Below are positions 1 to 35,680 of a DNA stretch of 64,000 bases, piece by piece. Position 1 is the stretch's first letter, and each line of letters opens with the position of its first letter. The notes below the pieces were generated by a model, which was not told the DNA's origin, made no database searches, and worked only from the letters and a program-made list of their open reading frames with translations. The translations under genes and the position numbers were made by a program. The stretch lies in NCBI GenBank assembly GCA_004551905.1, contig SFPL01000092.1, positions 1,371-65,370 of the forward strand, given 5' to 3'. Source of the DNA: Lentisphaeraceae bacterium (GTDB lineage: Bacteria > Verrucomicrobiota > Kiritimatiellia > RFP12 > UBA1067).

Positions 1-468
1 GAACTGATTGACAAGGTTTCTCTCACGCCCAGTCCGATGGTCTATACCCACGAAATGGTTCGTGAGGCCAATCCTGGCGCCAAGACGGTCTTTATCGGGC
101 CTTGCATCGCAAAGCGCAGCGAAGCCCGCCGCAAGGGGATTGATTTTGTTCTTTCGTTCGAAGAGCTCGGCGCGATTCTCGCCGGTCGCAAAATCGACGT
201 TCTCGCCTGCGAGGCGCATCCCATCGACCGTCCTGCTGCGGCAACCGCTCGCAATTTTGCGCGCAGTTGCGGAGTCACAGAGGCAGTTTTAGCCGAGGCT
301 ACGGCTAAGCTTCCCGGTTTTCAGCTTTCATCGAAGCAGATTAACGGTATCGATCGCAAAACATGCTCTATGCTTAAACTGTACGCGTCGGGCAAACTTC
401 CAGCGAACTTCCTTGAAGTTATGGCCTGTCCCGGCGGCTGTGTAAACGGCCCTTGCTCGCTTTCGTAG
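1..468 (+). CDS. [FeFe]-hydrogenase-like protein, C-terminal part (5' end outside window)
   Basis: Frame open from base 1. FIGPCIAKRSE and EVMACPGGCVNGP resemble the conserved cysteine motifs of the Fe-only hydrogenase large-subunit H-cluster domain. TAG stop at 466-468. Confidence 0.7.
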   Translation, partial: ELIDKVSLTPSPMVYTHEMVREANPGAKTVFIGPCIAKRSEARRKGIDFVLSFEELGAILAGRKIDVLACEAHPIDRPAAATARNFARSCGVTEAVLAEATAKLPGFQLSSKQINGIDRKTCSMLKLYASGKLPANFLEVMACPGGCVNGPCSLS

Positions 469-535
469 AATGTTTGAAGGAATGTGATTGGATTTCGCGG
501 CGGTTTGCGCGGCAGAATGCGCGGCGGTTAAACAG

Positions 536-593
536 GTTGAAAAGTTGGGCTACGCCGATTGAGAAGTTGAAAAGTTGAAAGGTTGAAAGGCTG
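536..593. repeat. GTTGAARR octamer repeats (one pair at 536-551, three tandem units at 566-589)
   Basis: gttgaaaa gttgggct ... gttgaaaa gttgaaag gttgaaag gctg, read directly. Confidence 0.8.
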
Positions 594-670
594 CGGCACC
601 TTCCGTGGCAGTTTCTGCGGCGGTTTGAAATGAAATGACGGTCGTATTTTCACACGGGAGGCCGATTTTT

Positions 671-679
671 TGGTAAAAT
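671..679 (+). promoter_or_regulatory. Extended -10 promoter (TGGTAAAAT) of metY
   Basis: TGn + TAAAAT, 11 nt before ATG 691. Confidence 0.5.
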
Positions 680-690
680 ACACAACACCT

Positions 691-1965
691 ATGAAAATTG
701 ATACACTCTGTGTGCAGGGCGGCTACAGCCCTGAGTGCGGTCAGCCCCGCCAGGTGCCGATCGTTACGTCGACCACCTTCAAGTACGATACCACCCAGCA
801 CATGGCCGACCTCTTCGACCTAAAGGCGCCCGGTTACTTCTACACCCGCCTCGCCAACCCCACCAACGACATGGTGGCGAAGAAGATCGCAGCGCTCGAG
901 GGCGGCGTCGCCGCGATTTTGACGAGCTCCGGCCAGGCGGCGTCGACCTTCGCCATCCTCAACCTCTGCAACGCCGGCGACCACGTCGTCTCCTCGGCGC
1001 AGATCTACGGCGGCACCTTCAACCTCTTCGCGGTCTCGCTGAAGAAGCTCGGCATCGAGTTCACCTTCGTAGACCCCGACGCGAGCGAGAAGGAGATCCA
1101 GAAGGCGTTCCGGCCCAACACCAAGTGCGTCTTCGGCGAGACGGTGGCGAATCCGTCCGGCTGCGTCCTCGACATCGCCAAGTTCGCGCGTGTCGCGCAC
1201 AAGAACGGCGTGCCGCTCATCGTCGACAATACCTTCCCGACCCCGATCCTCTGCCGTCCGTTCCGCTTCGGCTGCGACATCGTCACCCATGCGACCACCA
1301 AGTACATGGACGGCCACTCCAGCCAGGTCGGCGGCTGCATCGTCGACTCCGGCAACTTCGACTGGGCGAAGCACGCCGACAAGTTCCCCGGTCTCGTCGA
1401 GCCCGACGCGTCCTATCACGGCCTCAGCTACGTTAAGGCGTTCGGCAAGCAGGCCTTCATCGTCAAGTGCACCGCCCACCTGATGCGCGACTTCGGCTCC
1501 ATCCCCTCGCCGTTCAACGCGTTCCTGGTGAACCTCGGGCTCGAGTCGCTCCACCTCAGGATCCGCCGCCACGCGGAGTCTGCGCTCAAGATCGCCAAGT
1601 GGCTCAAGGCCCAGAAGAAGGTGGCGTGGGTCAACTTCGCCGGGCTGCCGGGCTCGAAGTACCACAAGCTCGTCAGGAAGCAGTTCGACGGCAATTCGCC
1701 GTGCGGCGTGATGACCTTCGGCATCAGGGGCGGGCGCAAGGCGTCCATCAAGTTCATGGATTCGCTGAAGCTCATCGGCATCGTGACCCACGTCGCCGAC
1801 GCCTGGAGCTGCGTTCTCCATCCGGCTTCGCACACCCACCGCCAGCTTACCGACGCGCAGCTCAAGGCGGCCGGCATTCCGCCGGACCTCATCCGGCTTT
1901 CTATCGGTCTCGAGGATCCGGAGGATCTTATTGCCGACTTGAGGCAGGCGCTGGCGAAGGTGTAA
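691..1965 (+). CDS. metY: O-acetylhomoserine sulfhydrylase (PLP-dependent Cys/Met metabolism family)
   Basis: Full-length resemblance to MetY-type enzymes (MKIDTLCVQGGY start, HATTKYMDGH lysine region, LIRLSIGLEDPEDLI tail). ATG 691 preferred over the TTG 670 of the ORF track. Confidence 0.85.
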   Translation: MKIDTLCVQGGYSPECGQPRQVPIVTSTTFKYDTTQHMADLFDLKAPGYFYTRLANPTNDMVAKKIAALEGGVAAILTSSGQAASTFAILNLCNAGDHVVSSAQIYGGTFNLFAVSLKKLGIEFTFVDPDASEKEIQKAFRPNTKCVFGETVANPSGCVLDIAKFARVAHKNGVPLIVDNTFPTPILCRPFRFGCDIVTHATTKYMDGHSSQVGGCIVDSGNFDWAKHADKFPGLVEPDASYHGLSYVKAFGKQAFIVKCTAHLMRDFGSIPSPFNAFLVNLGLESLHLRIRRHAESALKIAKWLKAQKKVAWVNFAGLPGSKYHKLVRKQFDGNSPCGVMTFGIRGGRKASIKFMDSLKLIGIVTHVADAWSCVLHPASHTHRQLTDAQLKAAGIPPDLIRLSIGLEDPEDLIADLRQALAKV

Positions 1966-1991
1966 ATCCAATCCTTAAGGAGGGATGAGCC

Positions 1992-4900
1992 ATGGCAGAC
2001 AGCAAGAAGGCACGGATATGGGACTGGACGGTCGGCGCGGCGCTCGCGGCGCTCGCGGCGCTCGTCTACTTCCTCTCGATGGCGAGCTACGCCTATCCCG
2101 GCGAGAGCGCGCACCTGCAGGTGGTCTGGCGCGGGCTCGACGCCGCGGCATCCACCCCGTATCCGCTGATGGCGTTCTTCGCGCGTCCGCTTGGCTGCGG
2201 CAACGCGATTGCCCCTGTCCTCGGCGTCCTCGCCGTCCTGCTCCTCTACGCCTGCACGCTCAAGTTCATGCGCCGGAACATCTTCGGCGAGGACGTGGAC
2301 GCGATGGCGGCGCCGGTCTCGCGCGTCGCCGGCGCTGCCGCGGCGCTGGTGTTCCTCTTCACCCCGGCGGTGCGGAGCGCCGCGACGCACCTAGAGCCGC
2401 GCCTCTTCGACGCGGTCTGGGCGCTCCTCTGCGCCGCGACACTGCTCGCCTACGTCGGCGCGAGTTCCCGCCGCCGCGCCTACCTCTTCCTCGTGCTCCT
2501 CGGCGCGCTTGCCGCGGCCGGCTTCTGCGACTCGGTCCTCTTCGTGGTGCTGATGCCGGTGGCGATCTTCATCGTCATCCGCACCGAGCTTTTCTCGGGG
2601 CGCAGTCCCTATGCCGCGCCCGCGCTCCTGCTCGGCGTGTTCCTGGTCGCGGTGTTCGTCTTCCTGACGGCGTTTGGCATCTCCTTCAACGACGTCCTCC
2701 GCCACTGCTCGGTCGACCTTTCGGTCTACACGCACCCGGGCTGGGTGCTCGTCGCCATCTTCGCCACTCTTCCGTTCGTGGTCGTGCTCTTCTCCTCCCC
2801 CCGCGTCTACAACGAGCCGTTTTCGCTGGTGCAGTTCGCGTTCCAGGCGGCGATGTCGCTGGTGGCGATAATAGCGGTGGCGACGCCGCTATCGCCCTCG
2901 TCGATGATGGAGACGTGGGGCGTGCCGCCGGTCGTCACCTCCGCGTTCGCTGCGTTCTTCGCCGGCCACCTGGTCTCCTACTGGTGGATGCGCCGCGGCA
3001 AGCCTTCCTGCCTCGCGGCGATGGTGGTGCTTGCCTTCGCGCTCGGCTTCGCCTCGCTCTGGAGCTTCTCCACCTTCGAGCGCGACCGCGGCGCCTTTGC
3101 CGACGCGGTCGTCCGCAAGGCGCTGGACGACATGGACGGGCGCACCTGGCTCGTCACCGACGGCCTGCTTGACGACCACTTCCTGCTCGAGAACGCCAGG
3201 CGCGGCGGCGACACAACCCTCGTCTCGCTCGCCCGCGACATAGAGCCCGACTACCTCGAGCGCCTTGGCGTACGCGTGCGCGAGAAGGGGATAGGCGGAT
3301 CCAAGAACACCCAGCTGATGCTCTCGCTTTCGCTCGGCGTGCTGCCGTTCGTGCAGGACTGGCTCAGCAGCGACCCGACCGCCCCGAAGTCCGTCGCCAT
3401 CTGGGGCGCGCCCGACCTCTGGTACTCGGCCGGCTTCCGTCCCGTGCCGGAGTTTCTCTTCTTCGGCGCCGACGAGTCCCGCGCCAAGATGGACTGGAGC
3501 GCCTGGCTTGAATTCAACAAGATCCTCCACGCGCCCAAGGACTGGGGAAGCTACTCGCACTGGCGCGACGTGAAGAACCCGATCGACCGCCTGCGCCTCG
3601 CCCTGCGCCGCCACCTTGGGCTCGTGGCGAACAACGTCGGCGTCTATCTGCAGGACCATGGCCACGACGACGAGGCCTTCGATTTCTACGAGCGCGTCCT
3701 CAACGAGATCGACTCTGACAACGTCTGCTCGCTCTTCAACGAGATCGAGCTCGCCGGTGCCAAGAACGCCAGGGCGGTCGCGAAGCGTCCCGAGCTCGAG
3801 CGCAAGCTCCGGCAGATCGCCGAAGACAAGGCGCGCCGCTACGCGATCTGGCGCCTCGCGTCGTACTACGGCTACATCCGCAATCCCGACATGTTCGTCC
3901 GGCTCGGCTACACCTGGGCGCGCTCCGGCCGCCCGGGCGACGCGCTGGCGCAGATCCGCCGCGCCATCGACTTCGTCCCCAAGGAGAAGCAGATCGCCCT
4001 CCTCAACATGATGGCCGCGCTCTACGCGAGCGAGAACGACCAGTCGAAGTCCCGCACCATCTACGAGAGCGTGCTCGCCCAGAACGGGCAGGACCACGAC
4101 GCCCTCATCGGCATGATGCGCCTCAAGCTGCTCGAAGGCGACCAGAAGCAGGCGCTCGCGTACCTGGAACGCGCGGTCAAGTCGTCGCCAGAGGAGGGGC
4201 GGCTCGCGAAGATCGAGCTTTCGATGATCTCAATGATGAAGGGCGATCTCAAGGGCGCCAAGGCGTCGCTCGCCAGGCTGACCGACGACAACCCGAAGGA
4301 TCTACAGGTCTGGTCGCTCCTCGCCGCCGTCACCATGCAGCTGTGGGACGCGTCCAAGGACCAGGCGGAGAAGACCGCGCTGATGAAGGACATCACCGAC
4401 CGCATCCTGCCCACGATGGAGAAGCAGTCCACCAACCCCTACGACTACTATCTCCAGACCACGAAGGCGTTCGTCTACATGCGCGGCGGCGACGACAAGC
4501 GCCGCCTCGCGCGCGACGCCTTCGCCGCGGCCGCCCGGGCCCGGCCGGACTCCACCGCCGCCCAGGATATGATGCTCGGGCTCGACATCTCGCTTGACGA
4601 CAAGGTCGGCGCCGAGCACCACGCGCGCGAGGTGCTGCGCCGCAACCGCAACGCGCCGCTCGCCAACTATGTGATGGGCTCGCTCGCGATCGGCCGCGGC
4701 CAGTACAACGAGGCCGAAGCCTATCTGCGCAAGGCGGCCGACGCCCCGCAGCCGAACGTCCTCGCGCTCAACGACATCGCCGAGGTCCTGCGCCGCACCA
4801 GGAAGCTGGACGACGCCGAGCGCTACGCCCGCCTCGCCACGGAGAAGGCCCCGGAATTCTATATCGTCTGGGAGACTCTGGGCGTGGTGCTGATGGACGC

Positions 4901-5135
4901 CGGCAAGGACGCCGCCGAGGCCGAGAAATGCATCGTCAAGGCGATCGAGCTGCAGAAGAAGAGCGGCGCCAAGACCGAGGACATCCGCATCTACGCCTCG
5001 CTCGCGCGGGCGCAGCTCCTGCGGGGCGACAAGAAGGCGGCGCGGCTCTCAGTCCGCAAGGTGCGACCGCGCATCTCGGAGCTGAACGACTTCGAGCGCC
5101 GCGAATTCGAGGAGATCGAGAAGCGTGTTAAGTGA
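1992..5135 (+). CDS. Polytopic membrane protein: N-terminal GT-C-like (DUF2723/TMEM260-like) multi-TM domain fused to C-terminal TPR repeats
   Basis: 1047-aa ORF with aaggaggg SD 7 nt upstream. The first ~430 aa carry many hydrophobic segments, with YPGESAHL...TPYPLMAFF after TM1 as in DUF2723-type proteins. The C-terminal half has TPR-like periodicity. Confidence 0.55.
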   Translation: MADSKKARIWDWTVGAALAALAALVYFLSMASYAYPGESAHLQVVWRGLDAAASTPYPLMAFFARPLGCGNAIAPVLGVLAVLLLYACTLKFMRRNIFGEDVDAMAAPVSRVAGAAAALVFLFTPAVRSAATHLEPRLFDAVWALLCAATLLAYVGASSRRRAYLFLVLLGALAAAGFCDSVLFVVLMPVAIFIVIRTELFSGRSPYAAPALLLGVFLVAVFVFLTAFGISFNDVLRHCSVDLSVYTHPGWVLVAIFATLPFVVVLFSSPRVYNEPFSLVQFAFQAAMSLVAIIAVATPLSPSSMMETWGVPPVVTSAFAAFFAGHLVSYWWMRRGKPSCLAAMVVLAFALGFASLWSFSTFERDRGAFADAVVRKALDDMDGRTWLVTDGLLDDHFLLENARRGGDTTLVSLARDIEPDYLERLGVRVREKGIGGSKNTQLMLSLSLGVLPFVQDWLSSDPTAPKSVAIWGAPDLWYSAGFRPVPEFLFFGADESRAKMDWSAWLEFNKILHAPKDWGSYSHWRDVKNPIDRLRLALRRHLGLVANNVGVYLQDHGHDDEAFDFYERVLNEIDSDNVCSLFNEIELAGAKNARAVAKRPELERKLRQIAEDKARRYAIWRLASYYGYIRNPDMFVRLGYTWARSGRPGDALAQIRRAIDFVPKEKQIALLNMMAALYASENDQSKSRTIYESVLAQNGQDHDALIGMMRLKLLEGDQKQALAYLERAVKSSPEEGRLAKIELSMISMMKGDLKGAKASLARLTDDNPKDLQVWSLLAAVTMQLWDASKDQAEKTALMKDITDRILPTMEKQSTNPYDYYLQTTKAFVYMRGGDDKRRLARDAFAAAARARPDSTAAQDMMLGLDISLDDKVGAEHHAREVLRRNRNAPLANYVMGSLAIGRGQYNEAEAYLRKAADAPQPNVLALNDIAEVLRRTRKLDDAERYARLATEKAPEFYIVWETLGVVLMDAGKDAAEAEKCIVKAIELQKKSGAKTEDIRIYASLARAQLLRGDKKAARLSVRKVRPRISELNDFERREFEEIEKRVK

Positions 5136-6261
5136 GCTGCTGCTCGCCTCAGCCATCCAGATCGGGCCGTTCTGGCAGCACGACGAGAACGGCTCGGCCG
5201 CGCTACGTCCGCTCTGGTCCCGGACGACCGAGACCACCGATGTCCTCTGGCCCGTCTTCACCGCCCACCGCGACTGGTGGCGCTGCTGCTTAGTCGCCCA
5301 CTACATGACCAACTACGCCGGCTGGCAGTTCTCGCTGTTGCCGATCTGGTGGAACGGCACGGCCAGGCGCCGCGGTGTGGAGGGCGCGGAGCCTGAGCCT
5401 TACTGGGGGCTCTTTCCGCTCTGGGGTACGCATCCGCACTTCCTCGCGCTTTACGACTTCGACTTCGTGCTCTGGCCGCTCTACCACGCCTACTCCACGC
5501 CGCGCCCAGGCGAGGACCGGATGATGCGCTCCCGCTCCGTCCTCTTCCCGTTTTTCCACTGGCGGGACGACGGCAGCTGGGGCTTCTGGCCCGTCTGCGG
5601 CGTCGGCCACCAGCGCGAGTCAGACCACCGCTACTTCCTCTGGCCGATCTTCACCTGGGCCGACTACCGCGCCGACCGCGTCACCGCCGGCGCCGGCTAC
5701 TCGTGGATGTTCTGGCCGCTCGTCGGCCACGTCGAGCGCGAGCGCGAAGACCAGTGGCTGGTAATTCCGCCGCTCTTCTCGCTCGCCGTAGTCAGCTACC
5801 CGGAGTTCTCCACGCCGGAAGAGGAGATCCGCGGCAGGCTGCTGAGGTGTCCGTGGCCGATCTTCGAGTGGGAGAACTCCGCCAACCGCGAGCGCATCTC
5901 CATCCTGCCGCTCTACGAACGCATCTGCTGGCGCTCGATGAATGATGGGGAGTTCTCCGGCTCCGTCACCCGTTTCGGCTGGCGGCTGGTGGAGATCTAC
6001 GATGACGAGACGCGCGTCTTCCCGATCTGGACCAGCCGCGGCGACGGCTCCTACTTCCGCCTCTGGCCGTTCTGGGAGTCGAGCGTGCGCGACGGAGTGG
6101 AGTATGGACGCTTCCTCTCCCTCTTCCCCATCCGCCACGTGCCGGCGGTGGACCGCAACTGGTCGAAGTTCTGGACCTTCTACGAGCGGGAGGAGAATCC
6201 GGTCGAAGTGAACCACTCGCTCTTCTGGGGCATCATCAGATGGCGTACCTCAAAACCATAA
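5125..6261 (+). CDS. Hypothetical Trp-rich repeat protein
   Basis: GTG start overlaps the upstream stop by 11 nt. About a dozen copies of an aromatic (L/F)(W/F)P(L/I/V)(F/Y/W) motif (LWPVF, LWPLY, FWPVCG, LWPIFTW, FWPLVG, WPIFEW, FPIWTS, LWPFWES). No family recognised. Confidence 0.55.
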   Translation: MLSELLLASAIQIGPFWQHDENGSAALRPLWSRTTETTDVLWPVFTAHRDWWRCCLVAHYMTNYAGWQFSLLPIWWNGTARRRGVEGAEPEPYWGLFPLWGTHPHFLALYDFDFVLWPLYHAYSTPRPGEDRMMRSRSVLFPFFHWRDDGSWGFWPVCGVGHQRESDHRYFLWPIFTWADYRADRVTAGAGYSWMFWPLVGHVEREREDQWLVIPPLFSLAVVSYPEFSTPEEEIRGRLLRCPWPIFEWENSANRERISILPLYERICWRSMNDGEFSGSVTRFGWRLVEIYDDETRVFPIWTSRGDGSYFRLWPFWESSVRDGVEYGRFLSLFPIRHVPAVDRNWSKFWTFYEREENPVEVNHSLFWGIIRWRTSKP

Positions 6262-7154
6262 GGATCTGGGCGCGGGCGCTGCGCGTGGGGCAGTGGACCA
6301 AGAACCTGCTCATCCCGGCGGCGTGGCTGTTCGCGCTCGGCGACCCTGCCCAGCGCGCGATGGCGCAGGGGTGGCGGCCGGTCCTGCTGATGCTCGGCAT
6401 GTTCGCGAGCTTCTGCCTCGTCTCCTCGGCGTTCTACCTCCTGAACGACGTCCGCGACCGCGAATCCGACCGCCGCCACCCGGTCAAGCGCTTCCGACCC
6501 GTCGCCGCCGGGCTCGTCTCGCCGCGCGAGGCAACCGTCGCCGCCGGCCTCCTGTTCGTCGCCGGCATCATCCCTTCGCTGGTGATGTTCCTCCGCCACG
6601 TCGACCGCTGGCCGATGATCGCGGTGGTCCTCGGCTACAGCGCCATGCAGCTCTGCTACACCGGCTTCCTCAAGCGCCTGCCCTACGTCGACGTCGTAGT
6701 CATCGCCGCTGGCTTCGTCCTCCGCGCCGTCGCCGGCACGATGGTGCTGGGCGTGCGCCTCTCGCCCTGGCTGCTCGCCTGCGCCTTCTCGCTCTCGCTC
6801 TTCCTCGCCCTTTGCAAGCGCCGCCACGAGAAGCTCCTGAGCGAGGAGTCCCGCCCCGCGCTCCTTGGTTACCACCTGCCCACCCTCGATATGCTCATCG
6901 CCAGCTCCGCCATGGTCACGCTTTCGGTCTACGTCGCCTACACGCTCGTCCCCTCGACCGTCGCGCGCTACGCCTGCGGCGAAAACCTCGCCTTCACCGC
7001 CATCCCCGTCGGCCTCGGGCTCGTCCGCTACCTCTATCTCACCTACGCCCGCGGCGACGTCGGCCGGCCGGACAAGATACTGCTCTCCGACAAGGTGATG
7101 TGGGCGATTCTCCTCCTATACGCCGTCTCCGCCGCGGTAGTGGTGGTGCGATGA
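6240..7154 (+). CDS. UbiA-family polyprenyl-phosphate phosphoribosyltransferase (decaprenyl-phosphate 5-phosphoribosyltransferase-like)
   Basis: 304 aa, multi-TM. YLLNDVRDRESDRRHPVKRFRPVAAG contains the NDxxDxxxD motif, and its continuation is typical of DPPR-synthase-type UbiA enzymes. Overlaps the upstream gene by 22 nt. Confidence 0.75.
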   Translation: MAYLKTIRIWARALRVGQWTKNLLIPAAWLFALGDPAQRAMAQGWRPVLLMLGMFASFCLVSSAFYLLNDVRDRESDRRHPVKRFRPVAAGLVSPREATVAAGLLFVAGIIPSLVMFLRHVDRWPMIAVVLGYSAMQLCYTGFLKRLPYVDVVVIAAGFVLRAVAGTMVLGVRLSPWLLACAFSLSLFLALCKRRHEKLLSEESRPALLGYHLPTLDMLIASSAMVTLSVYVAYTLVPSTVARYACGENLAFTAIPVGLGLVRYLYLTYARGDVGRPDKILLSDKVMWAILLLYAVSAAVVVVR

Positions 7155-8449
7155 AGCGCCTCCTCGACCACCTTGCCGGCTGTGCGCGGTTTGGGATGCG
7201 CCCCGGCCTAGAGGCGATCGACGCCGTCGCCGCCGCGCTCGGCCGCCCCGAGCGCTCGTTCCCATCCATCCACATCGCCGGCACCAACGGGAAGGGGGCC
7301 GTCGCCGCCATTCTCGACGCGGCGCTCCGCGCCCGCTCCCTCGCCCCCGTCACACGCTACACGAGCCCCCACCTCGTCCGCATCAACGAACGCTTCTTCG
7401 TGGACGGCACCGCCGTTGGCGACGACGCCCTCGCCGCCGCCGCGGACGACGTCCTCGCCGCTCTGGGTGCCGACCGGCTCACCTACTTCGAGACCCTGAC
7501 CGCCGTCGCCTTCGTCCTCTTCGCGCGTTTCCGCCCCGCCTTCGCCGTCATCGAGTGCGGGCTCGGCGGACGGCTCGACGCCACCAACCTCGTCGTCCCC
7601 GCCGTCTCCGTCATCACCCGGCTCGGCCTCGACCACTGCGACTGGCTCGGCGACACCATCGAGAAAATCGCTGCGGAGAAGGCGGGGATCGTCAAGCCCG
7701 GTGTCCCGGTCGTCCTCGGCGCCAACGAGCCCGTCGTGCGCGAGGTCGTCTCCCTCCGCGCGGCGGAACTGGGCGCGCCGTTCGTCTACGCCCCCGACCT
7801 CGCCGACGAAAGCGAGATTCCCGGCGGCTTTTCGCTCGGAGGCGCGTTTAACCGCGAAAACGCCGTCACCGCGCTTGCGGTCCTCAGGACGCTAGAAGGG
7901 CTGGGGACAGTCCCCGCCGCGCCGGACCCCTGCGCCGGCTTCAACGCGGTCTGCTGGCCTGGGCGCTACCAGCGCCTCGGCGCAACGCTGGTGGACGGAG
8001 CGCACAACCCGCCCGCCGCCGCCGCGCTCGCCGCCGCCCTGCGCGCGGACGGGGTGCAGGCGCGCAGCCTCGCGCTCGTCTCCGGGTTCTGCGGCGACAA
8101 GGACGTCGCCGCGGTGCTGCGGACGCTCTCGCCGCTCGTCGCGCGCGGCTACGCCGTCAAGACCTCGAACCCGCGCTCGCTTTCCGCCGCAGAGACGGCG
8201 GCGAGGATGCGCGCGGCCGGCATCGACGCGATGGCGTGCGCGTCGCTCGACGAGGCGCTGGCACATTCCGGCGCTGCGTCCGCGGCAAAGGAGCAGGTCG
8301 CGGCCGCGCCCAGCGCGCTTGTCGCGGGCTCGCTCTTCCTCGCCGGCGAGGCGCTTGCCGCCCTTGGCGCCGTCCCCGCTCCGTCCGACCGTCGCCCCGA
8401 CCCCTTCGAAACCCTCGTCACGAACTACGAACCGCGAAATATGCTATAA
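7151..8449 (+). CDS. folC: Folylpolyglutamate synthase / dihydrofolate synthase
   Basis: HIAGTNGKGAV P-loop of the Mur-ligase/FolC family. ATGA overlap with the upstream stop. The ORF-track N-terminal extension (from 6293) was rejected. Confidence 0.85.
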   Translation: MKRLLDHLAGCARFGMRPGLEAIDAVAAALGRPERSFPSIHIAGTNGKGAVAAILDAALRARSLAPVTRYTSPHLVRINERFFVDGTAVGDDALAAAADDVLAALGADRLTYFETLTAVAFVLFARFRPAFAVIECGLGGRLDATNLVVPAVSVITRLGLDHCDWLGDTIEKIAAEKAGIVKPGVPVVLGANEPVVREVVSLRAAELGAPFVYAPDLADESEIPGGFSLGGAFNRENAVTALAVLRTLEGLGTVPAAPDPCAGFNAVCWPGRYQRLGATLVDGAHNPPAAAALAAALRADGVQARSLALVSGFCGDKDVAAVLRTLSPLVARGYAVKTSNPRSLSAAETAARMRAAGIDAMACASLDEALAHSGAASAAKEQVAAAPSALVAGSLFLAGEALAALGAVPAPSDRRPDPFETLVTNYEPRNML

Positions 8450-8450
8450 T
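8419..8450 (+). promoter_or_regulatory. Promoter cassette: three tandem heptamers (CACGAAC TACGAAC CGCGAAA) + TGCTATAAT; leaderless gatA
   Basis: -10 hexamer at 8445-8450, 6 nt before ATG 8457. Near-identical to 17752-17783. Confidence 0.6.
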
Positions 8451-8456
8451 ACGCAC

Positions 8457-9911
8457 ATGGAACTTTACGAACTTGGTGTCAGGGAGGCGCTGGAGGGAAT
8501 CGCGAAGGGCGAGTTCTCCTGCGTTGAGCTGACGCAGGCGGTGATCGACCGGCGAAAGGCCGCTGACGGCGAGGTCGGCGCGTACCTCACCTTCGACGAG
8601 GAGCAGGCGCTCGCGCTCGCGAAGGAGAACCCGAAGTCGGTGCCGATCGCGATCAAGGACCTCATCAACGTCCGCGGCCAGCCCTGCACCTGCGCCTCGA
8701 AGATACTCAGGGGCTACGTCTCCCCCTACGACGCCACCGTGGTCGCGAACCTGCGCGCCAACGGCTTCATCCCCGCCGGCCGCGTCAACATGGACGAATT
8801 CGCGATGGGATCGTCGACCGAGCACTCCGGCCTGGGCGTGACCCGCAACCCCTATGACCCCGAGCGCGTGCCCGGCGGCAGCTCCGGCGGCAGCGCTGCG
8901 GCAGTCGGCGGCGACCTCTGCATCGCCGCGCTCGGCACCGACACCGGCGGTTCCATCCGCCAGCCCGCGAGTTTCTGCAACTGCGTCGGCGTGAAGCCGA
9001 GCTACGGCCGCGTGAGCCGCTACGGCGTCACCGCTTTCGCGAGCTCGCTCGACCAGGTGGGTCCCATGACCAAGTGCGTCGACGACGCGGCGATCCTGCT
9101 CCGGGCGCTCGCCGGCTGCGACCCGCACGACGGGACCTCGGCGCCGGATCCGGTGCCGGACTACCTCAAGGAGATCGAGGGCGCGTCGATGAAGGGGGTG
9201 CGGCTCGGGCTCCCGAAGGAGTACTTCGAGGTCTCGGGGCTCGACCCCGAGGTGAAGCGGATCGTCGAGGGGGCGGTGCGGGACTGCGAGGCGGCCGGCG
9301 CGGAGCTGGTGGAGATCTCGCTTCCCCACACCGAGTACGCGATGGCGGTCTACTACATCATCGCGCCGGCGGAGGCGTCCGCCAACCTGGCGCGGTTCGA
9401 CGGCGTCCGCTACGGCCACCGCAGCGCCGAGGCGAAGGATGTCTACTCGCTCTACGTGAAGAGCCGCGCCGAGGGGTTCGGTCCCGAGGTGAAGCGGAGG
9501 ATTATCATGGGCACCTACGTGCTCTCGTCGGGCTACTACGACGCCTACTACGGCAAGGCCCAGAAGGTGCGCACGCTGATCCGTCGCGACTTCGACGAGG
9601 CGTTCGCCAAGGTGGACGCGATCATCTCGCCCTGCGCGCCGACGCCGGCGTTCAAGTTCGGGGCGAACCAGGACCCGCTCACGATGTACCTGAACGACCT
9701 CTACACCATTCCGTCCGCGCTCGCCGGGGTGTGCGCCTCGTCGGTGCCGGCCGGCTTCACCGCGGCGGATTCGCTGCCGGTCGGGGTGCAGTTCATTTGC
9801 GGCGGCTTCGAGGAGGCGAAGCTGCTCAGGGTTTCGAAGGCTTTCGAGCAGATGCGTCAGCGGCGGACGCTCGCCGATTTCCGCAGGGAGAAAGGGAGGT
9901 TAAGCGCATGA
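8457..9911 (+). CDS. gatA: Glutamyl-tRNA(Gln)/aspartyl-tRNA(Asn) amidotransferase subunit A
   Basis: Amidase signature [11 protein letters not shown]...[12 protein letters not shown]. 484 aa. ATG lies 6 nt after a TGCTATAAT box. Confidence 0.9.
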
Positions 9912-10405
9912 AGAAGGCGACGATCGAGACGTCAATGGGCACAATAACCGTCGAGCTGGACGACGAAAGGGCGCCGGCCACGGTGGAGAACTTCGTGAAG
10001 TACGCGGCCGACGGCTTCTACGACGGCACGATCTTCCACCGCGTGATTGACGGGTTCATGGTCCAGGGCGGCGGCTTCACTCGAGACATGAACCAGAAGG
10101 ACACGCGCGGGCCGATCCGCATCGAGTCCATGAACGGGCTCAAGAACCTCCGCGGCACGATCGCGATGGCGAGGACGATGGTGCCCGACTCGGCGACGAG
10201 CCAGTTCTTCATCAACCTCGTCGACAACGGCTTCCTTGACTTCACCGCGCCCACCCAGAGCGGCTACGGTTACGCCGTCTTCGGCAAGGTGACGGACGGC
10301 ATGGAGGTTGTCGACCGCATCGCCAAGGTGCGCACCGGCTTCTCCGGTCCCCACCAGAACGTGCCCGAGGAGCCGGTGGTGATCAGGAAGGTTACCGTGG
10401 CCTGA
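9908..10405 (+). CDS. ppiB: Cyclophilin-type peptidyl-prolyl cis-trans isomerase
   Basis: [15 protein letters not shown] and SQFFIN motifs. ATGA overlap with the gatA stop. Confidence 0.9.
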
Positions 10406-10431
10406 CCCTTGATTTCCGCCGCGAAAAATCA

Positions 10432-10437
10432 TATAAT
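10432..10437 (+). promoter_or_regulatory. -10 box TATAAT upstream of the repeat-protein gene
   Basis: TATAAT 35 nt before ATG 10473. The leader carries an aaggaga SD. Confidence 0.4.
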
Positions 10438-10472
10438 ACCAGACAACTACACCTCACAAGGAGAAACGAGTG

Positions 10473-11054
10473 ATGAAGAAACTGCTTTCGTTCATGTTCG
10501 CCGCCGCGGTCGCGGCCGCCGCCTATGCCGACGACGACTCCGCCGCGGCCGAGATGGCCAAGAACGTCGCGGCGCGTTCCCAGGCCGAGGAGCAGCGCTA
10601 CGACAGCCCCACCTGGCCGGCGTTCCTCGCCGTCTGGCAGGTCCCGCACGCGCTCGACGTGGTCGGCCTTCGCATCACCATCCCTTACTCCACCGCGCAG
10701 GAGAACGTCACCGGCTTCGACCTCGGCCTCTGGGGCCGCTGCCTCTACTTCGAGGGCGTGCAGGTGAACCTGCTCCGCTGCGACGTCGTGGACGACGGCG
10801 CGGGCGCCCAGGTGGGCATCTACAACTCGATCGGCCACGGCGACATGCTCGGGGTGCAGGTCGGCCTCTGGAACGAGGCGCTCTGCCTGCGCGGCGTTCA
10901 GGCCGGCCTCATCAACGTCGCCGGCGATGCGGAAGGCTTCCAGGTCGGCATCGTCAACCGCGCGGAGTCGCTCCACGGCTACCAGCTCGGCCTCGTCAAC
11001 GTGATCCGCTCCGCCGAGTTCCAGTTCTTCCCGATAATCAACATCGGCTTCTGA
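10473..11054 (+). CDS. Secreted GxQxGxxN-repeat protein with C-terminal FFPIINIGF (paralog of 35681-36217)
   Basis: Signal peptide MKKLLSFMFAAAVAAAAYA. Repeated GVQVNLL, GAQVGIYN, GVQVGLWN, GVQAGLIN, GFQVGIVN, GYQLGLVN units. Terminal aromatic residue. aaggaga SD. Confidence 0.6.
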   Translation: MKKLLSFMFAAAVAAAAYADDDSAAAEMAKNVAARSQAEEQRYDSPTWPAFLAVWQVPHALDVVGLRITIPYSTAQENVTGFDLGLWGRCLYFEGVQVNLLRCDVVDDGAGAQVGIYNSIGHGDMLGVQVGLWNEALCLRGVQAGLINVAGDAEGFQVGIVNRAESLHGYQLGLVNVIRSAEFQFFPIINIGF

Positions 11055-11061
11055 TCAGCAG

Positions 11062-12255
11062 ATGAACATCCGTGCATTCGCGGCCGTCAGGCCGAATAAG
11101 GAGGACGCAGCCCTGGTCGCGTCCGTTCCATACGACGTGGTCGACACGGCGGAGGCGAAGGCCCTCGCCGAGGACAACCCGAAGAGCTTCCTCCACGTGT
11201 CGCGTCCCGAGATCGACCTCGCGCCCGGCACCGACCCTTCCTCGCCCGAGGCGTACGCGCAGGCGCGCCGTGCGCTCGACGCGCTGATCGCTGGCGGCAC
11301 GCTGGTGCGCGACCCCGAGCCCAAGTTCTACGCTTACCGCCAGACGATGGGCTCGCACTCGCAGACGGGCATCGTGGCGACGTTCGACACCCAGGACTAC
11401 CTCGCCGGCGTCCTCAAGCAGCACGAGAAGACGCGCAAGGACAAGGAGGACGACCGCACCCGCCACATCGAGACGCTCTCCGCCCACACCGGCCCGGCGT
11501 TCCTCACCTACCGCGACGACAAAGCGATCGACCTCATTGTCGAGGAGGCGTGCCGCCGCGAGCCGCTCTACGACTTCACCGCGCCCGATGGCATCGGTCA
11601 CACGGTCTGGGAGATCGCCGCGGCGTCGTCCTGCGCCGCCGACGAGCTGGTGGAGCGCTTCGCGCAGATCCCCGTCGCCTACATCGCCGACGGCCACCAC
11701 CGCAGCGCTGCGGCCTCGCGCTACGCGAAGGAGCGCAACTTCGAGGGCGAGAGCCGCTGGTTCCTCGCCGTCGCGTTCCCCGCGAGCCAGCTCAAGATCC
11801 TCGCCTACAACCGCCTGGTCGCGGACCTGAACGGACTCTCCGACTACGAGTTCCTCTCCCGCGTCTCCGAGAGCTTCACCATCCAATCGCGCGGCGAGCG
11901 CAACTGCCGCATGTACTTCCGCGGCAAGTGGATGGACCTTTCCTGGGACGCGCCCCGCGGCGCCGGCGCGGCGGAGGCGCTTGACGTCTCCTACCTGCAG
12001 TCGAAGCTGCTCGCGCCCATCCTGGGCATCGGCGACCCGCGCACCGACAAGCGCATCTCCTTCATGGGCGGCATCCGCGGCGACGCGGAGCTGGCCGCCA
12101 AGGTCGACTCCGGCGAGAACGCCGTCGCGTTCGCGATGGAGCCGGTGACGGTCGAGGAGATGATGGCCATCGCCGACGCTGGCGCGATCATGCCGCCGAA
12201 GTCGACCTGGTTCGAGCCGAAGCTTCGCTCGGGGCTGTTCGTCCACGCCGTCTGA
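11062..12255 (+). CDS. DUF1015 family protein
   Basis: N-terminus MNIRAFAAVRPN...VPYDVVDT and the ADGHHR motif are typical of DUF1015. 397 aa. Confidence 0.75.
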   Translation: MNIRAFAAVRPNKEDAALVASVPYDVVDTAEAKALAEDNPKSFLHVSRPEIDLAPGTDPSSPEAYAQARRALDALIAGGTLVRDPEPKFYAYRQTMGSHSQTGIVATFDTQDYLAGVLKQHEKTRKDKEDDRTRHIETLSAHTGPAFLTYRDDKAIDLIVEEACRREPLYDFTAPDGIGHTVWEIAAASSCAADELVERFAQIPVAYIADGHHRSAAASRYAKERNFEGESRWFLAVAFPASQLKILAYNRLVADLNGLSDYEFLSRVSESFTIQSRGERNCRMYFRGKWMDLSWDAPRGAGAAEALDVSYLQSKLLAPILGIGDPRTDKRISFMGGIRGDAELAAKVDSGENAVAFAMEPVTVEEMMAIADAGAIMPPKSTWFEPKLRSGLFVHAV

Positions 12256-12261
12256 GGCTGC

Positions 12262-12756
12262 GTGGCGATGAACCTCGGCGCGTTTTTCCGGTTTATCTGG
12301 CGGAAGATGGTCCGCGACCCGCTTCCGCCGGAGGACGTCGCCGCCGGCTGGGCGCTGGGGATGTTCGTCGGCTGCTCGGTTCCGTTCGGGCTGCAGCTGA
12401 TCGTGTCGGTGCCGTTCGCGATGATGATGCGCATCTCCAAGGTGGGCGCGACGGTCGGCACCTTCATCACCAACCCGCTGACCATCTGGATCATCTACCC
12501 CGCGCAGACGATGGCGATGGGCTGGCTGCTCGGACGCGACTTCTCCTGGGACTACATCCTCCAGGCGATGCGCGGGGTGGCGGAGAACAGCGACTGGAAG
12601 ACGCTCCTGAGCCTCTCGGGGGACGTCGTGGTGTGCTTCATCCTCGGCGGCCTCGCTCTCGCGTCGGTGCTCACGCCGATAACCTACTTCACCGTCAGGA
12701 CATTGGTGAGGAAATACAGAAGCGGAAGGAGTGGAAATGGAAATCGTTTGCCTTGA
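12262..12756 (+). CDS. DUF2062 family membrane protein
   Basis: AAGWALGMFVGCSVPFGLQ...TNPLTIWIIYP pattern of DUF2062. Start (GTG 12262 or ATG 12268) is uncertain. Confidence 0.65.
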   Translation: MAMNLGAFFRFIWRKMVRDPLPPEDVAAGWALGMFVGCSVPFGLQLIVSVPFAMMMRISKVGATVGTFITNPLTIWIIYPAQTMAMGWLLGRDFSWDYILQAMRGVAENSDWKTLLSLSGDVVVCFILGGLALASVLTPITYFTVRTLVRKYRSGRSGNGNRLP

Positions 12757-13348
12757 CCTCGAGGGAGTGCTGGTGCCGGAGATCTGGATCGAGTTCTCCC
12801 GCGCCACCGGGATTCCGGAGTTCGCGCGCACCACGCGCGACGAGCCCGACTACGACAGGCTGATGCACTACCGCATCGACCTCCTCGCGAAGCACGGGCT
12901 CGGCCTCGCCGAGATCCAGTCCGTCATCGCCCGCATTGACCCTATGGAAGGGGCGCGGGAGTTCCTCGACGCGCTGCGCGAGCGCACCCAGGTGGCGATC
13001 CTCTCGGACACCTTCGCCGAGTTCGTGAAGCCGCTGATGAAGAAGCTCGGCTGGCCGACGCTCCTCTGCAACACGCTGGTGGCGACGCCGGAAGGGAAGG
13101 TGACGGGCTACAAGATGCGCTGCGCGAAGTCGAAGCTCGCCACCGTGCGCGCGTTCCAGTCCTGCGGGCTCGACACGATCGCCGCGGGCGACAGCTTCAA
13201 CGACCTGGAGATGATCCGCGCCTCCCGCGACGGCTTCCTCTTCCGCTCGACCGACGCGATCAAGGCCGCCAACCCGGACCTCCCCGCGTTCGAGACCTAC
13301 GCCGAGCTCCTCTCCGCCATCTCCTCCGCGCTGAAAGCCGGGGAGTAA
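12737..13348 (+). CDS. thrH: ThrH-type phosphoserine phosphatase / homoserine phosphotransferase (HAD superfamily)
   Basis: MEIVCLDLEGVLVPEIWI...ILSDTF...AAGDSFND is collinear with my recollection of Pseudomonas ThrH. SD ggaaggag 5 nt upstream of ATG 12737. Confidence 0.8.
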   Translation: MEIVCLDLEGVLVPEIWIEFSRATGIPEFARTTRDEPDYDRLMHYRIDLLAKHGLGLAEIQSVIARIDPMEGAREFLDALRERTQVAILSDTFAEFVKPLMKKLGWPTLLCNTLVATPEGKVTGYKMRCAKSKLATVRAFQSCGLDTIAAGDSFNDLEMIRASRDGFLFRSTDAIKAANPDLPAFETYAELLSAISSALKAGE

Positions 13349-13372
13349 AGGTTGTTGGTTGCTGAGACACTT

Positions 13373-13431
13373 CCAACGCATTAAAAACAATTCAGGGGCC
13401 CCAAAGGGGAAGGATCGGTTTAATGCGTTGG
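13373..13431. repeat. Perfect 13-bp inverted repeat (CCAACGCATTAAA / TTTAATGCGTTGG) with 33-nt spacer
   Basis: Read directly, between the thrH stop and the tadC-like promoter. The spacer contains GGGGCCCC. Confidence 0.8.
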
Positions 13432-13473
13432 CCGTACTAACCCCATGCCCATTGTGCAGAGCGGCGCGAATTA

Positions 13474-13482
13474 TGGTATAAT
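13474..13482 (+). promoter_or_regulatory. Extended -10 promoter (TGGTATAAT) of the tadC-like operon
   Basis: 9 nt before ATG 13492. Confidence 0.55.
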
Positions 13483-13491
13483 TAGCATCCG

Positions 13492-14292
13492 ATGGACTCA
13501 CTTACCATAGCGTCGATGGCGATCTGGGCGGCGGCGGCGGCCGGCGTGGCGTGGTACCTGGCGACTGTCGCCGGGGAGGTGACCTATGTCACACTCGCGG
13601 ACGGGCGCCGCCAGGCGCGGCAGATACCGATTGTCTTCAAGGCGCTGCTGCCGTTTGCGCCGAACTTCTTCCCGCTCGTCCAGAGTCCGGCGTTCCGGCG
13701 CACGGTGGAGAGCGCGGACGCGAAGCTGGTGCAGGGAGGCTTCGAGGGTCTGATCTCGGGAGAGGAGTTCGCGGCGCTCAAGCTGATGCTGCTGTGGGTG
13801 CTGCCGGACCTTTGGCTGCGCGGTGCGGTGAAGCGTCGCCACCTCGCGATTCAGAAGGCGCTGCCGTTTGTCCTCGACCTGCTGACGCTTTCGGTCGAGG
13901 CGGGCATGGACTTCATCAGCGCGCTGCAGCGCAACTGCCGGCTGCGGCGGCTCGACCCGCTCAACGAGGAACTCCTGCGGATGACGAAGGAGATCCAGGT
14001 CGGTCGTTCGCGCCGCGAGGCGCTGAAGGACATGGCGAAGCGCGTCGGCCAGCCGGACCTGCGGTCGGTCGCGCACGCGCTGATTCAGGCGGACGAGCTC
14101 GGCGTCTCCATCGGCGCGATGCTGAGGATACAGTCCGACCAGCTCCGCGCTCGCCGCTTCGATCGGGCGGAGAAGCTGGCGGCGGAGGCGCCGGTCAAGA
14201 TGCTCGGTCCGCTGATGCTCTGCATTTTCCCGGCGGTGTTCATCATCCTGCTCGGGCCGGTGCTTACCCAGGCGATGAAAGGAGTGTTCTGA
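13492..14292 (+). CDS. Type II secretion system F-domain platform protein (TadB/TadC-like)
   Basis: LPFVLDLLTLSVEAGMDF...EIQVGRSRREAL...QADELGVSIG...FPAVFIILLGP is typical of the T2SSF/TadC family. ATG lies 9 nt after TGGTATAAT. Confidence 0.8.
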   Translation: MDSLTIASMAIWAAAAAGVAWYLATVAGEVTYVTLADGRRQARQIPIVFKALLPFAPNFFPLVQSPAFRRTVESADAKLVQGGFEGLISGEEFAALKLMLLWVLPDLWLRGAVKRRHLAIQKALPFVLDLLTLSVEAGMDFISALQRNCRLRRLDPLNEELLRMTKEIQVGRSRREALKDMAKRVGQPDLRSVAHALIQADELGVSIGAMLRIQSDQLRARRFDRAEKLAAEAPVKMLGPLMLCIFPAVFIILLGPVLTQAMKGVF

Positions 14293-15599
14293 TGGCGGAT
14301 AATCCGTCACTTGAGGCGGTGAAGGGCCCGCTCGCGGGCCGCAGGTTCGAGGTGGGCCCGGGCGGGCTCAGGCTCGGCCGCTCGTCCACCTGCGACATCC
14401 ACGTTCCCGACGAGGAGCTGTCGCGCAACCACTGTCTCTTCGAGGCGGCGGGGTCGACCGGCCTGCGCGTGACCGACCTCGCGAGCGCGAACGGCACCAT
14501 CGTCAACGGCGAGCCGATCGGCGCGGAGCCGGTTCCGCTCTCGCCGGGCGACACAGTGGAGGCGGGCGGCACCATGCTGCGCGTCGCCGGCGGAGCGGTG
14601 TCGCGGCTGGACCTGGGGCTCGGGCCGGCGGCGCCGGCGGGACAGGCCGCGGCGCCGTCCGCGCCGCCGCGCCGCCGGCGTCCGGCGTTCCTCAACGCGC
14701 TGTGGGGAATCGCGGTGGCGTCGTGCGCGATCGGGATCTACCTGGCGCTGACCGGGAAGCGGACTGTGACCGTGCCGCCGGCGGCGCCGGTCGAGGAGGC
14801 GGCGCCGGTCGTCAAGGAGGCTTTCTACGAAAAGGTGGAGGCGAACGATTCGCGCATCTTCCGCTACGCGATGACGCTGGCGGCGGACTCCACGCTGACG
14901 GTGAAGGTCGATGACGTGCCGGACGAGAACCGCCACCACGCCAAGAGCCAGCCGCTCGGCCCAGAGGCGCTGGAGGAGATCAACGAGATCCTCGCCTGGA
15001 AGAACCTGAAGGACCTCGACCGCGAGTACATCGGCGTCGAGCCCGACCCGCCGGCGCTCGAGAGCTGGTCGCTCCGTGTGGTCTACTCCAACCGGGTGCG
15101 CACGGTGAAGGTGGTCAACACCCAGGAGCCGGAGGCGTTCAGGGTGATCCGCGAGCGGCTGGAGGCGTTCTCCAAGAGCGAGCTCGGGGTGTGGGCGATC
15201 CAGTACTCCCGCGGCAAGCTGATGGAGCTCGCCGAGAAGGCGGCGGAGCTCGGCGAGGCGAAGTGGGCCGACCGCGACGTCGAGCACGGCAACCTCGCCG
15301 CGTCGATCGAGGCGTACCGCGAGGCGCTGTTCTACCTCGAGACCATCGACCCGAAGCCGCCGCTTGCGGCGACGGTGCGCGAGGGGCTGGAGCGCTCGAA
15401 GGAGGAGCTCGACCGGCGCTGCCGCGACCAGCGGTTCCTCGCCGACCGCGCGCTCAACCTCAAGCAGTGGGAGGAGGCGAAGAGCGCGCTGATGGTGCTG
15501 ATGGAGATGGTGCCTGACCGCCGCGACGACCGCCACCGCGACGCCAAGACGAAGCTCCTCTCGGCGGAGAGCCATCTGAAGAAGGGAGGCGAGAGATGA
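14292..15599 (+). CDS. FHA-domain membrane protein
   Basis: N-terminal FHA (LRLGRSSTCDIHVPDEELSRNHCLF...SANGTIVNGEPI), one TM (ALWGIAVASCAIGIYLAL) and a ~270-aa C-terminal domain. ATG overlaps the upstream TGA. Confidence 0.8.
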   Translation: MADNPSLEAVKGPLAGRRFEVGPGGLRLGRSSTCDIHVPDEELSRNHCLFEAAGSTGLRVTDLASANGTIVNGEPIGAEPVPLSPGDTVEAGGTMLRVAGGAVSRLDLGLGPAAPAGQAAAPSAPPRRRRPAFLNALWGIAVASCAIGIYLALTGKRTVTVPPAAPVEEAAPVVKEAFYEKVEANDSRIFRYAMTLAADSTLTVKVDDVPDENRHHAKSQPLGPEALEEINEILAWKNLKDLDREYIGVEPDPPALESWSLRVVYSNRVRTVKVVNTQEPEAFRVIRERLEAFSKSELGVWAIQYSRGKLMELAEKAAELGEAKWADRDVEHGNLAASIEAYREALFYLETIDPKPPLAATVREGLERSKEELDRRCRDQRFLADRALNLKQWEEAKSALMVLMEMVPDRRDDRHRDAKTKLLSAESHLKKGGER

Positions 15600-35664: not shown

Positions 35665-35680
35665 CCGAAAGGATCCGAGA

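Follow-up and report, generated by a model that had tools for sequence, protein, structure and literature searches.

Using a combination of profile searches, structure models and gene-neighbourhood comparison, we describe here three overlapping genes in a 64,000-nucleotide stretch (the window) of contig SFPL01000092.1 from the Lentisphaeraceae bacterium assembly GCA_004551905.1. They encode a TMEM260-like (DUF2723) membrane protein of the putative glycosyltransferase-C type (GT-C), here called P1; a tryptophan-rich beta-repeat protein of a new family, P2; and a predicted polyprenyl-phosphate 5-phosphoribosyltransferase (PPPRS) of the UbiA superfamily, P3. Across related genomes, P1–P2 is a robust two-gene unit; UbiA–folC is conserved as a pair of its own, and in the lineage of the window (class A below) the two are joined. 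That P1 and P2 work together is supported, because their genes are adjacent in two divergent lineages and share an 11-nt overlap in 14 of the 15 class-A loci. We tentatively propose that the three genes form a periplasmic glycosylation module in which P3 would feed P1 and P2 would act as a dedicated partner, a reading that we consider a real possibility short of being probable.

The predicted phosphoribosyltransferase P3 and the putative glycosyltransferase P1

The initial annotation had named P3 a polyprenyl-phosphate phosphoribosyltransferase, and an assignment to the Rv3806c/DPPRS type is borne out by profile, structure and residue comparison. Residues 24-271 match the Pfam family UbiA (PF01040), whose cut-off is 34.2 bits, with 78.6 bits, the best NCBIfam matches are three DPPRS models (E = 1.5e-51, 3.2e-49 and 1.7e-39), and the sole relative in the PDB at E <= 0.01 is Rv3806c of M. 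tuberculosis (8j8j, E = 3.3e-29). Models of other prenyltransferases, including those for quinone, heme and chlorophyll synthesis with which the protein might have clustered, match at E = 1e-10 or worse (heme O synthase 6e-9; UbiA 2e-7). Since the DPPRS scores lie under the equivalog cut-offs (NF008977, 175.5 of 234 bits; NF008978, 167.6 of 207; NF008976, 136 of 474), P3 is by these profiles a divergent branch and not the curated mycobacterial equivalog. Within the 482-residue fusion-type model NF006088 it aligns only to the C-terminal positions 191-476, and therefore lacks the N-terminal phosphatase domain of Citrobacter ORF15.

A pairwise alignment to 8j8j shows that 10 of the 12 published Rv3806c residues in contact with phosphoribosyl pyrophosphate (PRPP) are identical in P3, with R22, K28, Y70, N73, D77, K87, R90, Q135, Y138 and K143 of Rv3806c corresponding to R15, K21, Y66, N69, D73, K83, R86, Q137, Y140 and K145. 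In place of Y157, P3 has F159, a change that also occurs in some mycobacteria (PMC10994848), and K208 is unaligned. In Rv3806c, Mg and pyrophosphate are bound by N73 and D77, the ribose by N73 and Q135, and the 5-phosphate by K28, Y70 and Y157; R22, K87, R90, K143 and Y138 are further contacts of the pyrophosphate, and K208 adds to the positive charge of this cleft. The phosphoribose sites K28, Y70 and Q135 are not conserved in ordinary UbiA prenyltransferases (PMC10994848). In the same alignment the catalytic loop of P3 (Table 1), for which we drew the residue roles from PMC10994848 and PMC11127046, has its equivalents in N73, D74, D77, D81, K87 and R90 of Rv3806c. Judged by these residues, P3 is equipped for PRPP-dependent phosphoribosyl transfer to polyprenyl phosphate.

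Sequence and an AlphaFold2 (AF2) model support P1 as a GT-C protein that is distantly like TMEM260/DUF2723 and has an arm for acceptor binding in the periplasm, because the domain order of the model matches the description of TMEM260 and homologues of P1 pass the DUF2723 model PF11028. In the cryo-EM structure of human TMEM260, seven GT-C helices are accompanied by four variable helices, a two-helix sugar-recognition motif lies between transmembrane helices (TM) 1 and 2 and a bridge helix between TM7 and TM8, and a Rossmann-like domain with the catalytic base D441 is followed by tetratricopeptide repeats (TPRs) that grip an extended peptide; the donor is a hexose, Dol-P-Man (preprint 10.64898/2026.03.17.711096). 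The model of P1 (pLDDT 83.8, pTM 0.73) runs from TM1 through a loop with two short helices, ten TM helices and an alpha/beta domain to a TPR region of ~520 residues, and places a short helix (aa 232-245) between TM7 and TM8. P1 thus resembles TMEM260, a protein O-mannosyltransferase of PF11028, in its 11 TM helices (GT-C plus variable module), two-helix loop 1, Rossmann-like domain and TPRs, and in a conserved aspartate ~25 residues into the Rossmann-like domain; the likeness is one of description, and residue equivalence to D52 of loop 1, to H67 and to D441 is not established. It differs in that its TPR arm is far longer than the ~140 aa of TMEM260, in that the sequence similarity of the window protein is marginal, and in that its donor is probably not Dol-P-Man.

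The initial annotation had described P1 as GT-C-like with TPRs and had pointed to the DUF2723/TMEM260 type; the homologues and the AF2 layout of 11 TM helices, Rossmann-like domain and TPRs support this, and the Pfam score of the window protein by itself does not. The protein scores 17.0-17.6 bits against PF11028, below the gathering cut-off of 24.2, over residues 71-197, with loop 1 outside the alignment. Among the homologues, in which PF11028 is the sole non-TPR Pfam family to recur, P0152 passes with 29.5 bits, P0168 reaches 23.2 bits, and the class-B homologue of locus L106 passes with 35.3 bits over model positions 21-173, so that membership is supported transitively in sequence space, not directly. 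A profile of the N-terminal 400 aa found no match among PDB sequences at E <= 10, where a single-sequence search gave noise, and tblastn of the P1 N-terminus against plasmids found no match. The TPR families are matched at E = 1e-15 to 1e-8 (Pfam), and Foldseek aligns this region with the TPR domain of OGT, with Ctr9 and with APC/C. Because the basic residues of P1 concentrate in the predicted cytoplasmic loops, following the positive-inside rule as read from the sequence, we assign a periplasmic location to the Rossmann-like domain and the TPRs.

Residues on the periplasmic face of P1 are conserved across both of its lineages. Common to classes A and B are P36, G37, S39, W46, D50, P58, H133, D140 and W251 in loops of the membrane module, and R384, W386, D390, G391, D394, H396, D416, D418, Q455, D456, W457, D475 and D494 in the Rossmann-like domain. 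The latter holds the conserved stretch W386-x-V-x-D390-G-x-x-D394-x-H396, in which, ~25-30 residues from the start of the domain, both lineages keep D394 without exception and D390 almost always. Class A has E at position 135 in 51 of 51 proteins and D at position 180 in 50 of 51; class B has D or E at the former, which is always acidic, and E at the latter. D50 is acidic in 47 of 51 class-A proteins and D in all 6 of class B. In L001 the Rossmann-like domain is 61% identical to that of the window, compared with 47% for the TM module.

The P2 family and the conservation of the gene pair

P2 belongs to a new family of beta-repeat proteins that is probably exported. With 30 tryptophans among its 378 residues (7.9%), it consists of ~16 hairpin units built on the motif [W/F/L]-P-h-h, of which [W/F/L]-P is invariant in the alignment, and its AF2 model has ~32 strands at a pLDDT of 74. 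No Pfam or NCBIfam model matches it, and a fold comparison with the PDB gave no match at E <= 0.001 and TM-scores of 0.17 or less; weak matches to beta-propeller and Rhs folds are not meaningful. An exhaustive profile search nevertheless places P2 in a family of 761 representative clusters at 50% identity, most of them proteins of 420-550 aa with N-terminal extensions. A hydrophobic N-terminal segment is present in 110 of 127 distant full-length representatives and a lipobox-like motif in 42 of 127, and the class-B homologues carry canonical Sec signal peptides. Export of the window protein is likely by these sequence features of its relatives. Class-A P2 itself has at its N-terminus (window 5125-5170) only ~12 hydrophobic residues and no basic residue, directly before a conserved GPF motif and the first repeat; its export may have to do with the conserved overlap of the gene with the end of P1. 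Serines and threonines that are kept in P1-linked and not in Mla-linked P2 proteins (e.g. T187, S193, S219, S259 and S365) would fit glycosites, closer kinship explains them equally, and we do not use them as evidence.

Gene context divides the loci of P2 and its relatives into three classes, the last of them (class C) drawn from a genome scan with a 12-sequence P2 alignment. Class A, with a P2 identity of 53% or more, has the order (metY)-P1-P2-UbiA-(folC) in L001, L085, L087 and 14 metagenome loci; P1 and P2 are adjacent in every locus that extends far enough, and P3 lies directly 3' of P2 in 14 of 14 metagenome loci as well as in L001, L085 and L087, in most cases overlapping it, with UbiA identities of 46-79%. 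Class B (L088-L106, e.g. L106:6559-11257) has a P2 identity of 36-40% and, in 14 loci, a P1-like gene directly upstream whose product of 1105-1134 aa is 28-37% identical to P1 in the N-terminal domain; a few intermediate P2 loci, such as L097, are without P1. Class C, at ~25-34% identity, is found in Kiritimatiellia, Pontiellaceae and Lentisphaerota, and its 80 genome loci contain neither P1 nor UbiA within 10 kb. Directly 3' of the P2 relative, these loci encode MlaE (75 of 80), an ABC ATPase (68 of 80) and MlaD (63 of 80), and the P2 relatives themselves are long forms of 420-550 aa with signal peptides or lipoboxes (L005-L084, e.g. L013:10001-13801; L108-L159).

The overlaps of P1 with P2, of P2 with P3 and of P3 with folC, on which the initial annotation had built its case, are all present in the sequence. 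The gene overlaps exceed chance expectation: of the 15 class-A loci, the window counted, 14 have the 11-nt P1/P2 overlap, although the P1 N-terminal domain is only 36-50% identical between the window and the related loci. In these 14 loci the P2 start is GTG in 13 and ATG in L161, and most of them have a purine-rich stretch 5' of it, mainly GAGGAG or GAGGAA. The P2/P3 overlap measures 4-19 nt in the related loci.

Proposed mechanism, rival explanations and known systems

In the mechanism that we propose, P3 in the inner membrane would move 5-phosphoribose from PRPP onto polyprenyl phosphate at the cytoplasmic face, as its sequence likeness to Rv3806c and Citrobacter ORF15 suggests. The lipid-linked (phospho)ribofuranose would be dephosphorylated and flipped by proteins encoded elsewhere, and ribofuranose or a derivative on the lipid would become the donor for P1. 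The 11-helix membrane module of P1 would bind the lipid-linked sugar, and its Rossmann-like domain (with D390 and D394) together with the long TPR arm would hold an extended protein acceptor. P2 would be exported as the dedicated partner of P1, most likely as its acceptor substrate by analogy with pilA–tfpW, or alternatively as an adaptor presenting the acceptor. We infer both this acceptor or adaptor role, from the analogy, and the identities of donor sugar and acceptor.

A number of observations weigh against the proposed module. The locus encodes no phosphoribose phosphatase, P3 being a UbiA domain only and a separate enzyme being absent, and the called genes within 10 kb include no flippase of the MATE, GtrA or SMR type. 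There is no epimerase at the locus, the called genes of the 64-kb window containing neither a FAD_binding_4/ALO nor a DprE2-like gene, as the initial annotation had already stated of DprE1 and DprE2. On the side of P1, the score of the window protein falls short of PF11028; the GT-C fold is unconfirmed, since full-length fold searches (PDB, BFVD) returned only TPR proteins among the best 50 and are uninformative on the membrane module; and loop-1 E38 is not invariant (acidic in 44 of 51 proteins of class A, E in 4 of 6 of class B). The export signal of class-A P2 is atypical, short and without positive charge, which leaves its export uncertain, and the link of the wider family to MlaEFD fits a lipid-handling or structural role more than that of an acceptor. 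Class-B P1–P2 pairs have no UbiA within 10 kb. Conversely, UbiA–folC occurs without P1–P2 in L086 (7258-10240), as LpxB–GT2–UbiA–folC, and in L168 (207-3064, P0436), as a GT2::UbiA fusion followed by folC, and UbiA–folC adjacency is conserved more widely than P1–P2–UbiA. As P1–P2 and UbiA are separate elsewhere, their adjacency could therefore be synteny within a housekeeping string. Of the single system of three genes that the initial annotation had seen, then, the P1–P2 part holds firmly, and the tie to UbiA is the looser one.

These separations lend themselves to an explanation in which two independent modules are neighbours only by gene order, P1–P2 using another lipid-linked donor, e.g. 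a polyprenyl-phosphate hexose, and P3 feeding another pathway, for instance that of a polysaccharide or lipopolysaccharide side-chain, together with the GT2 enzyme of the relatives. The GT2 proteins to which UbiA is coupled or fused in L086 and L168 resemble polyprenyl-phosphate glycosyltransferases (ArnC, PpgS, AglJ-like), TMEM260 itself takes a hexose donor, Dol-P-Man, and the stretch from metY to gatA and a peptidylprolyl isomerase (PPIase) gene consists of housekeeping DNA read in one direction, in which promoter and terminator signals do not exceed chance. Yet P3 stands directly 3' of P2 throughout class A, across all the divergence of its UbiA proteins and mostly overlapping, and no other donor synthase is found near P1–P2 in the window; the co-directional overlap with folC makes overlap alone weak evidence either way. 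We regard two independent modules as somewhat doubtful, though a serious contender. A different explanation keeps the partnership of P1 and P2 and makes P2 a lipid-handling periplasmic protein instead of an acceptor, one that carries a lipid or lipoglycan for P1 or ferries the polyprenyl-linked donor and is docked by the P1 TPR arm. In favour of this are the long-form relatives, which have signal peptides or lipoboxes and whose genes directly precede those for MlaE, an ABC ATPase and MlaD, and the aromatic-rich, all-beta character of P2, which is often met in lipid-groove proteins; lipids are also acted on by some GT-C enzymes, ArnT among them. The P2 model, however, matches no solved lipid-transfer fold, the window has no Mla gene, and the Rossmann-like domain and TPR arm of the TMEM260 type are described as gripping extended peptides, so that we think a lipid-handling P2 unlikely.

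Least probable is a TMEM260-like P1 that lacks catalytic activity and transfers no sugar at all, serving instead as a scaffold or chaperone while P2 folds or inserts. Such a role would be in line with the loss of E38, to V, T or S, from several members of the family and with the weak, loop-1-free match of the window protein to the Pfam model; it is at odds with the retention of D50, H133, D140, D390, D394 and the acidic positions 135 and 180 in both lineages, and with a full-length membrane module that is kept over deep divergence. At the other extreme, P1 might be a protein glycosyltransferase of the TMEM260 type, and the first in bacteria for which a dedicated substrate can be identified, placing P3-derived ribofuranose or pentofuranose on several sites of P2. 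We hold this strong form to be improbable. If true, it would constitute a protein pentofuranosylation system unrelated to pilin arabinosylation, and its substrate would come from a family restricted to PVC bacteria, the other members of which act alongside MCE/Mla lipid transporters; in Kiritimatiellota the glycosylation of proteins would then be connected with the lipid traffic of the outer envelope.

The glycosylation module that we tentatively favour has precedents in known systems. Periplasmic pentofuranose addition by a PPPRS, a flippase and a GT-C enzyme is established and has been called widespread (Kelly et al., PNAS 2024, PMC11127046), ORF15–ORF14–ORF12 of Citrobacter youngae O1/O2 being a three-component system of this kind (PMC11127046). 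As there, a UbiA-type PPPRS with its catalytic N/D residues kept is paired here with a putative GT-C enzyme bearing an extra periplasmic acceptor-binding domain. In contrast, P3 has no fused HAD phosphoribose-phosphatase domain and the locus has neither a MATE/GtrA flippase nor an epimerase; the Citrobacter GT-C is a GT136 enzyme with a carbohydrate-binding module, whereas P1 is TMEM260/DUF2723-like with TPRs and PF11028 as its sole family signal; and the acceptor there is the O-antigen, where here it is likely a protein, P2 having no counterpart in Citrobacter. Closer in this respect is the arabinosylation of group IV pilins in P. aeruginosa, in which TfpW is an 11-TM GT-C with a periplasmic TPR whose gene adjoins that of its substrate PilA, the system also including PsPA7_6246-6249. 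Both systems have an 11-TM protein of the GT-C type (putative here) with a C-terminal periplasmic TPR domain, an adjacent gene whose product is, or here would be, the acceptor, and a donor that derives, or here would derive, from a PPPRS. They differ in that the window has no DprE1/DprE2 or GtrA-like genes and in that the adjacent gene is a downstream Trp-rich beta-repeat protein here and an upstream pilin there, the likeness of P1 to TfpW being again by description.

Comparison with the mycobacterial decaprenyl-phospho-arabinose pathway (Rv3806c, Rv3807c, DprE1/E2, Emb/Aft) gives a similar picture: P3 is homologous to Rv3806c with PRPP-binding residues kept, and in both cases a lipid-linked pentose is, or here would be, consumed by GT-C enzymes outside the cytoplasm, but neither a PAP2 phosphatase nor an epimerase is encoded in the window, P3 stays below the DPPRS equivalog cut-offs, and the GT-C enzyme comes from an unrelated family. 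With Mla/MCE operons the locus shares only the family of P2, distant members of which stand in an operon-like array with MlaE, MlaF and MlaD, whereas P2 of the window adjoins no Mla gene and is unrelated in sequence to MlaA, MlaB and MlaC (no Pfam match). What is already known, therefore, is a PPPRS feeding a periplasmic GT-C and, in TfpW, a protein-directed version of it. What is new here is the lineage, Kiritimatiellota, the TMEM260/DUF2723-like GT-C family and a closely coupled partner gene that represents a new family. The periplasmic ribofuranosyl transfer that the initial annotation suggested is accordingly a novelty for this lineage only: the strategy had been described (PMC11127046; TfpW), and the transfer itself is inferred at a locus that has no phosphatase and no flippase.

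Locus layout, neighbouring genes and significance

An open reading frame scan with translations found P1, P2, P3 and folC as four co-directional genes on the + strand (Table 1), within a long housekeeping run of metY, P1, P2, P3, folC, gatA, PPIase, DUF1015, DUF2062 and thrH. The gene metY also stands 5' of P1 in L001, L085, L087, L147, L166 and L167, and the homologue names point to Kiritimatiellae and to metagenomes of gut or rumen type. G+C is even across the region (0.66-0.71), and there is thus no hint of a recent insertion. A scan of window 1-13600 for promoters and terminators gave counts not above those of shuffled sequence, and operon boundaries therefore cannot be set. The initial annotation had let the coupled genes continue into folC; the ATGA overlap is real and reflects conserved housekeeping order with no evident functional link, and we do not regard folC as part of the system. 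Its functional membership was rejected as unsupported, the gene being a bona fide folC followed by gatA, with the UbiA–folC order persisting in other contexts.

Table 1. Coordinates of genes, overlaps and protein regions at the locus (window positions)
Feature	Position	Strand	Basis or remark
metY-like O-acetylhomoserine sulfhydrylase	691..1965	+	Pfam Cys_Met_Meta_PP 409 bits, TIGR01326 566 bits; upstream neighbour, context only
P1, 1047 aa, TMEM260-like (DUF2723) putative GT-C-type membrane protein	1992..5135	+	ATG start, AAGGAGG before it
P1 transmembrane module, aa 1-362, 11 predicted TM helices	1992..3077	+	AF2 secondary structure
P1 predicted periplasmic loop 1, aa 29-72, two short helices	2076..2207	+	AF2 secondary structure
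P1 predicted periplasmic alpha/beta (Rossmann-like) domain, aa ~365-525	3084..3566	+	alternating strands and helices in AF2 model
P1 TPR superhelix, aa ~530-1047, predicted periplasmic	3579..5132	+	Pfam TPR_2, TPR_14, TPR_12, TPR_19
P1/P2 overlap, 11 nt, P1 stop over P2 GTG start	5125..5135	+	sequence; GAGGAG 10 nt 5' of GTG
P2, 378 aa, Trp/Pro-rich all-beta repeat protein, new family	5125..6261	+	GTG start
P2/P3 overlap, 22 nt, P2 stop over P3 ATG start	6240..6261	+	sequence
P3, 304 aa, predicted UbiA-superfamily PPPRS	6240..7154	+	ATG start
P3 catalytic loop N69-D70-x2-D73-x3-D77...K83...R86, motif NDVRDRESDRRHPVKRFRPVAAG, residues 69-91	6444..6512	+	alignment to 8j8j
folC	7151..8449	+	ATGA overlap with P3; TIGR01499 300.9 bits, cut-off 162.65

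Elsewhere in the window, the only HAD gene of the neighbourhood (12737-13348), preceded by a gene for a DUF2062 membrane protein (the two spanning 12268-13348), was considered as a phosphoribose phosphatase and rejected, its product being of the ThrH type (phosphoserine phosphatase/homoserine phosphotransferase; NF010109, 289.6 bits). A small DMT_6 (DUF486) membrane protein is encoded at 23423-23803, ~16 kb 3' of P3 and directly upstream of a PRPP synthetase gene (23879-24844), PRPP being the predicted substrate of P3. Small DMT/SMR-like proteins can serve as lipid-sugar flippases. At 13492-16918, genes for a T2SS-F-like protein, a protein with an FHA/Yop-YscD domain and a PEGA-domain protein follow one another, their ends overlapping or touching, which looks like a secretion or pilus-related module. 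A predicted envelope cluster at 35284-39372 comprises DUF1425, an unknown, an LpoB-like (weak match), a second unknown and a CsgG-like protein (faint match), followed by a 488-aa protein without family match. Further genes encode a 919-aa Ser/Thr protein kinase (43297-46056) and, on the - strand, a 907-aa protein with an acetyl-xylan-esterase and two GDSL lipase domains (59775-62498) that fits a polysaccharide-degrading lifestyle.

DUF2723/TMEM260-like proteins are widespread in bacteria, and we found no characterisation of them in the literature searched; here a conserved 11-nt overlap ties one of them to a single partner gene, and one lineage also ties the pair to a lipid-linked pentose synthase, which together offers a testable enzyme, a candidate donor and a candidate acceptor. 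If the proposed module is real, periplasmic pentofuranose addition, so far seen with O-antigens, pilins and mycobacterial arabinan, would extend to the PVC superphylum and to another GT-C family. P2 in turn represents a large family without a Pfam model, the members of which mostly front MlaEFD operons in Kiritimatiellota and Lentisphaerota. The long-form relatives may be an unrecognised component of MCE/Mla envelope lipid transport in PVC bacteria of the gut, rumen and sediment, which have been little studied.

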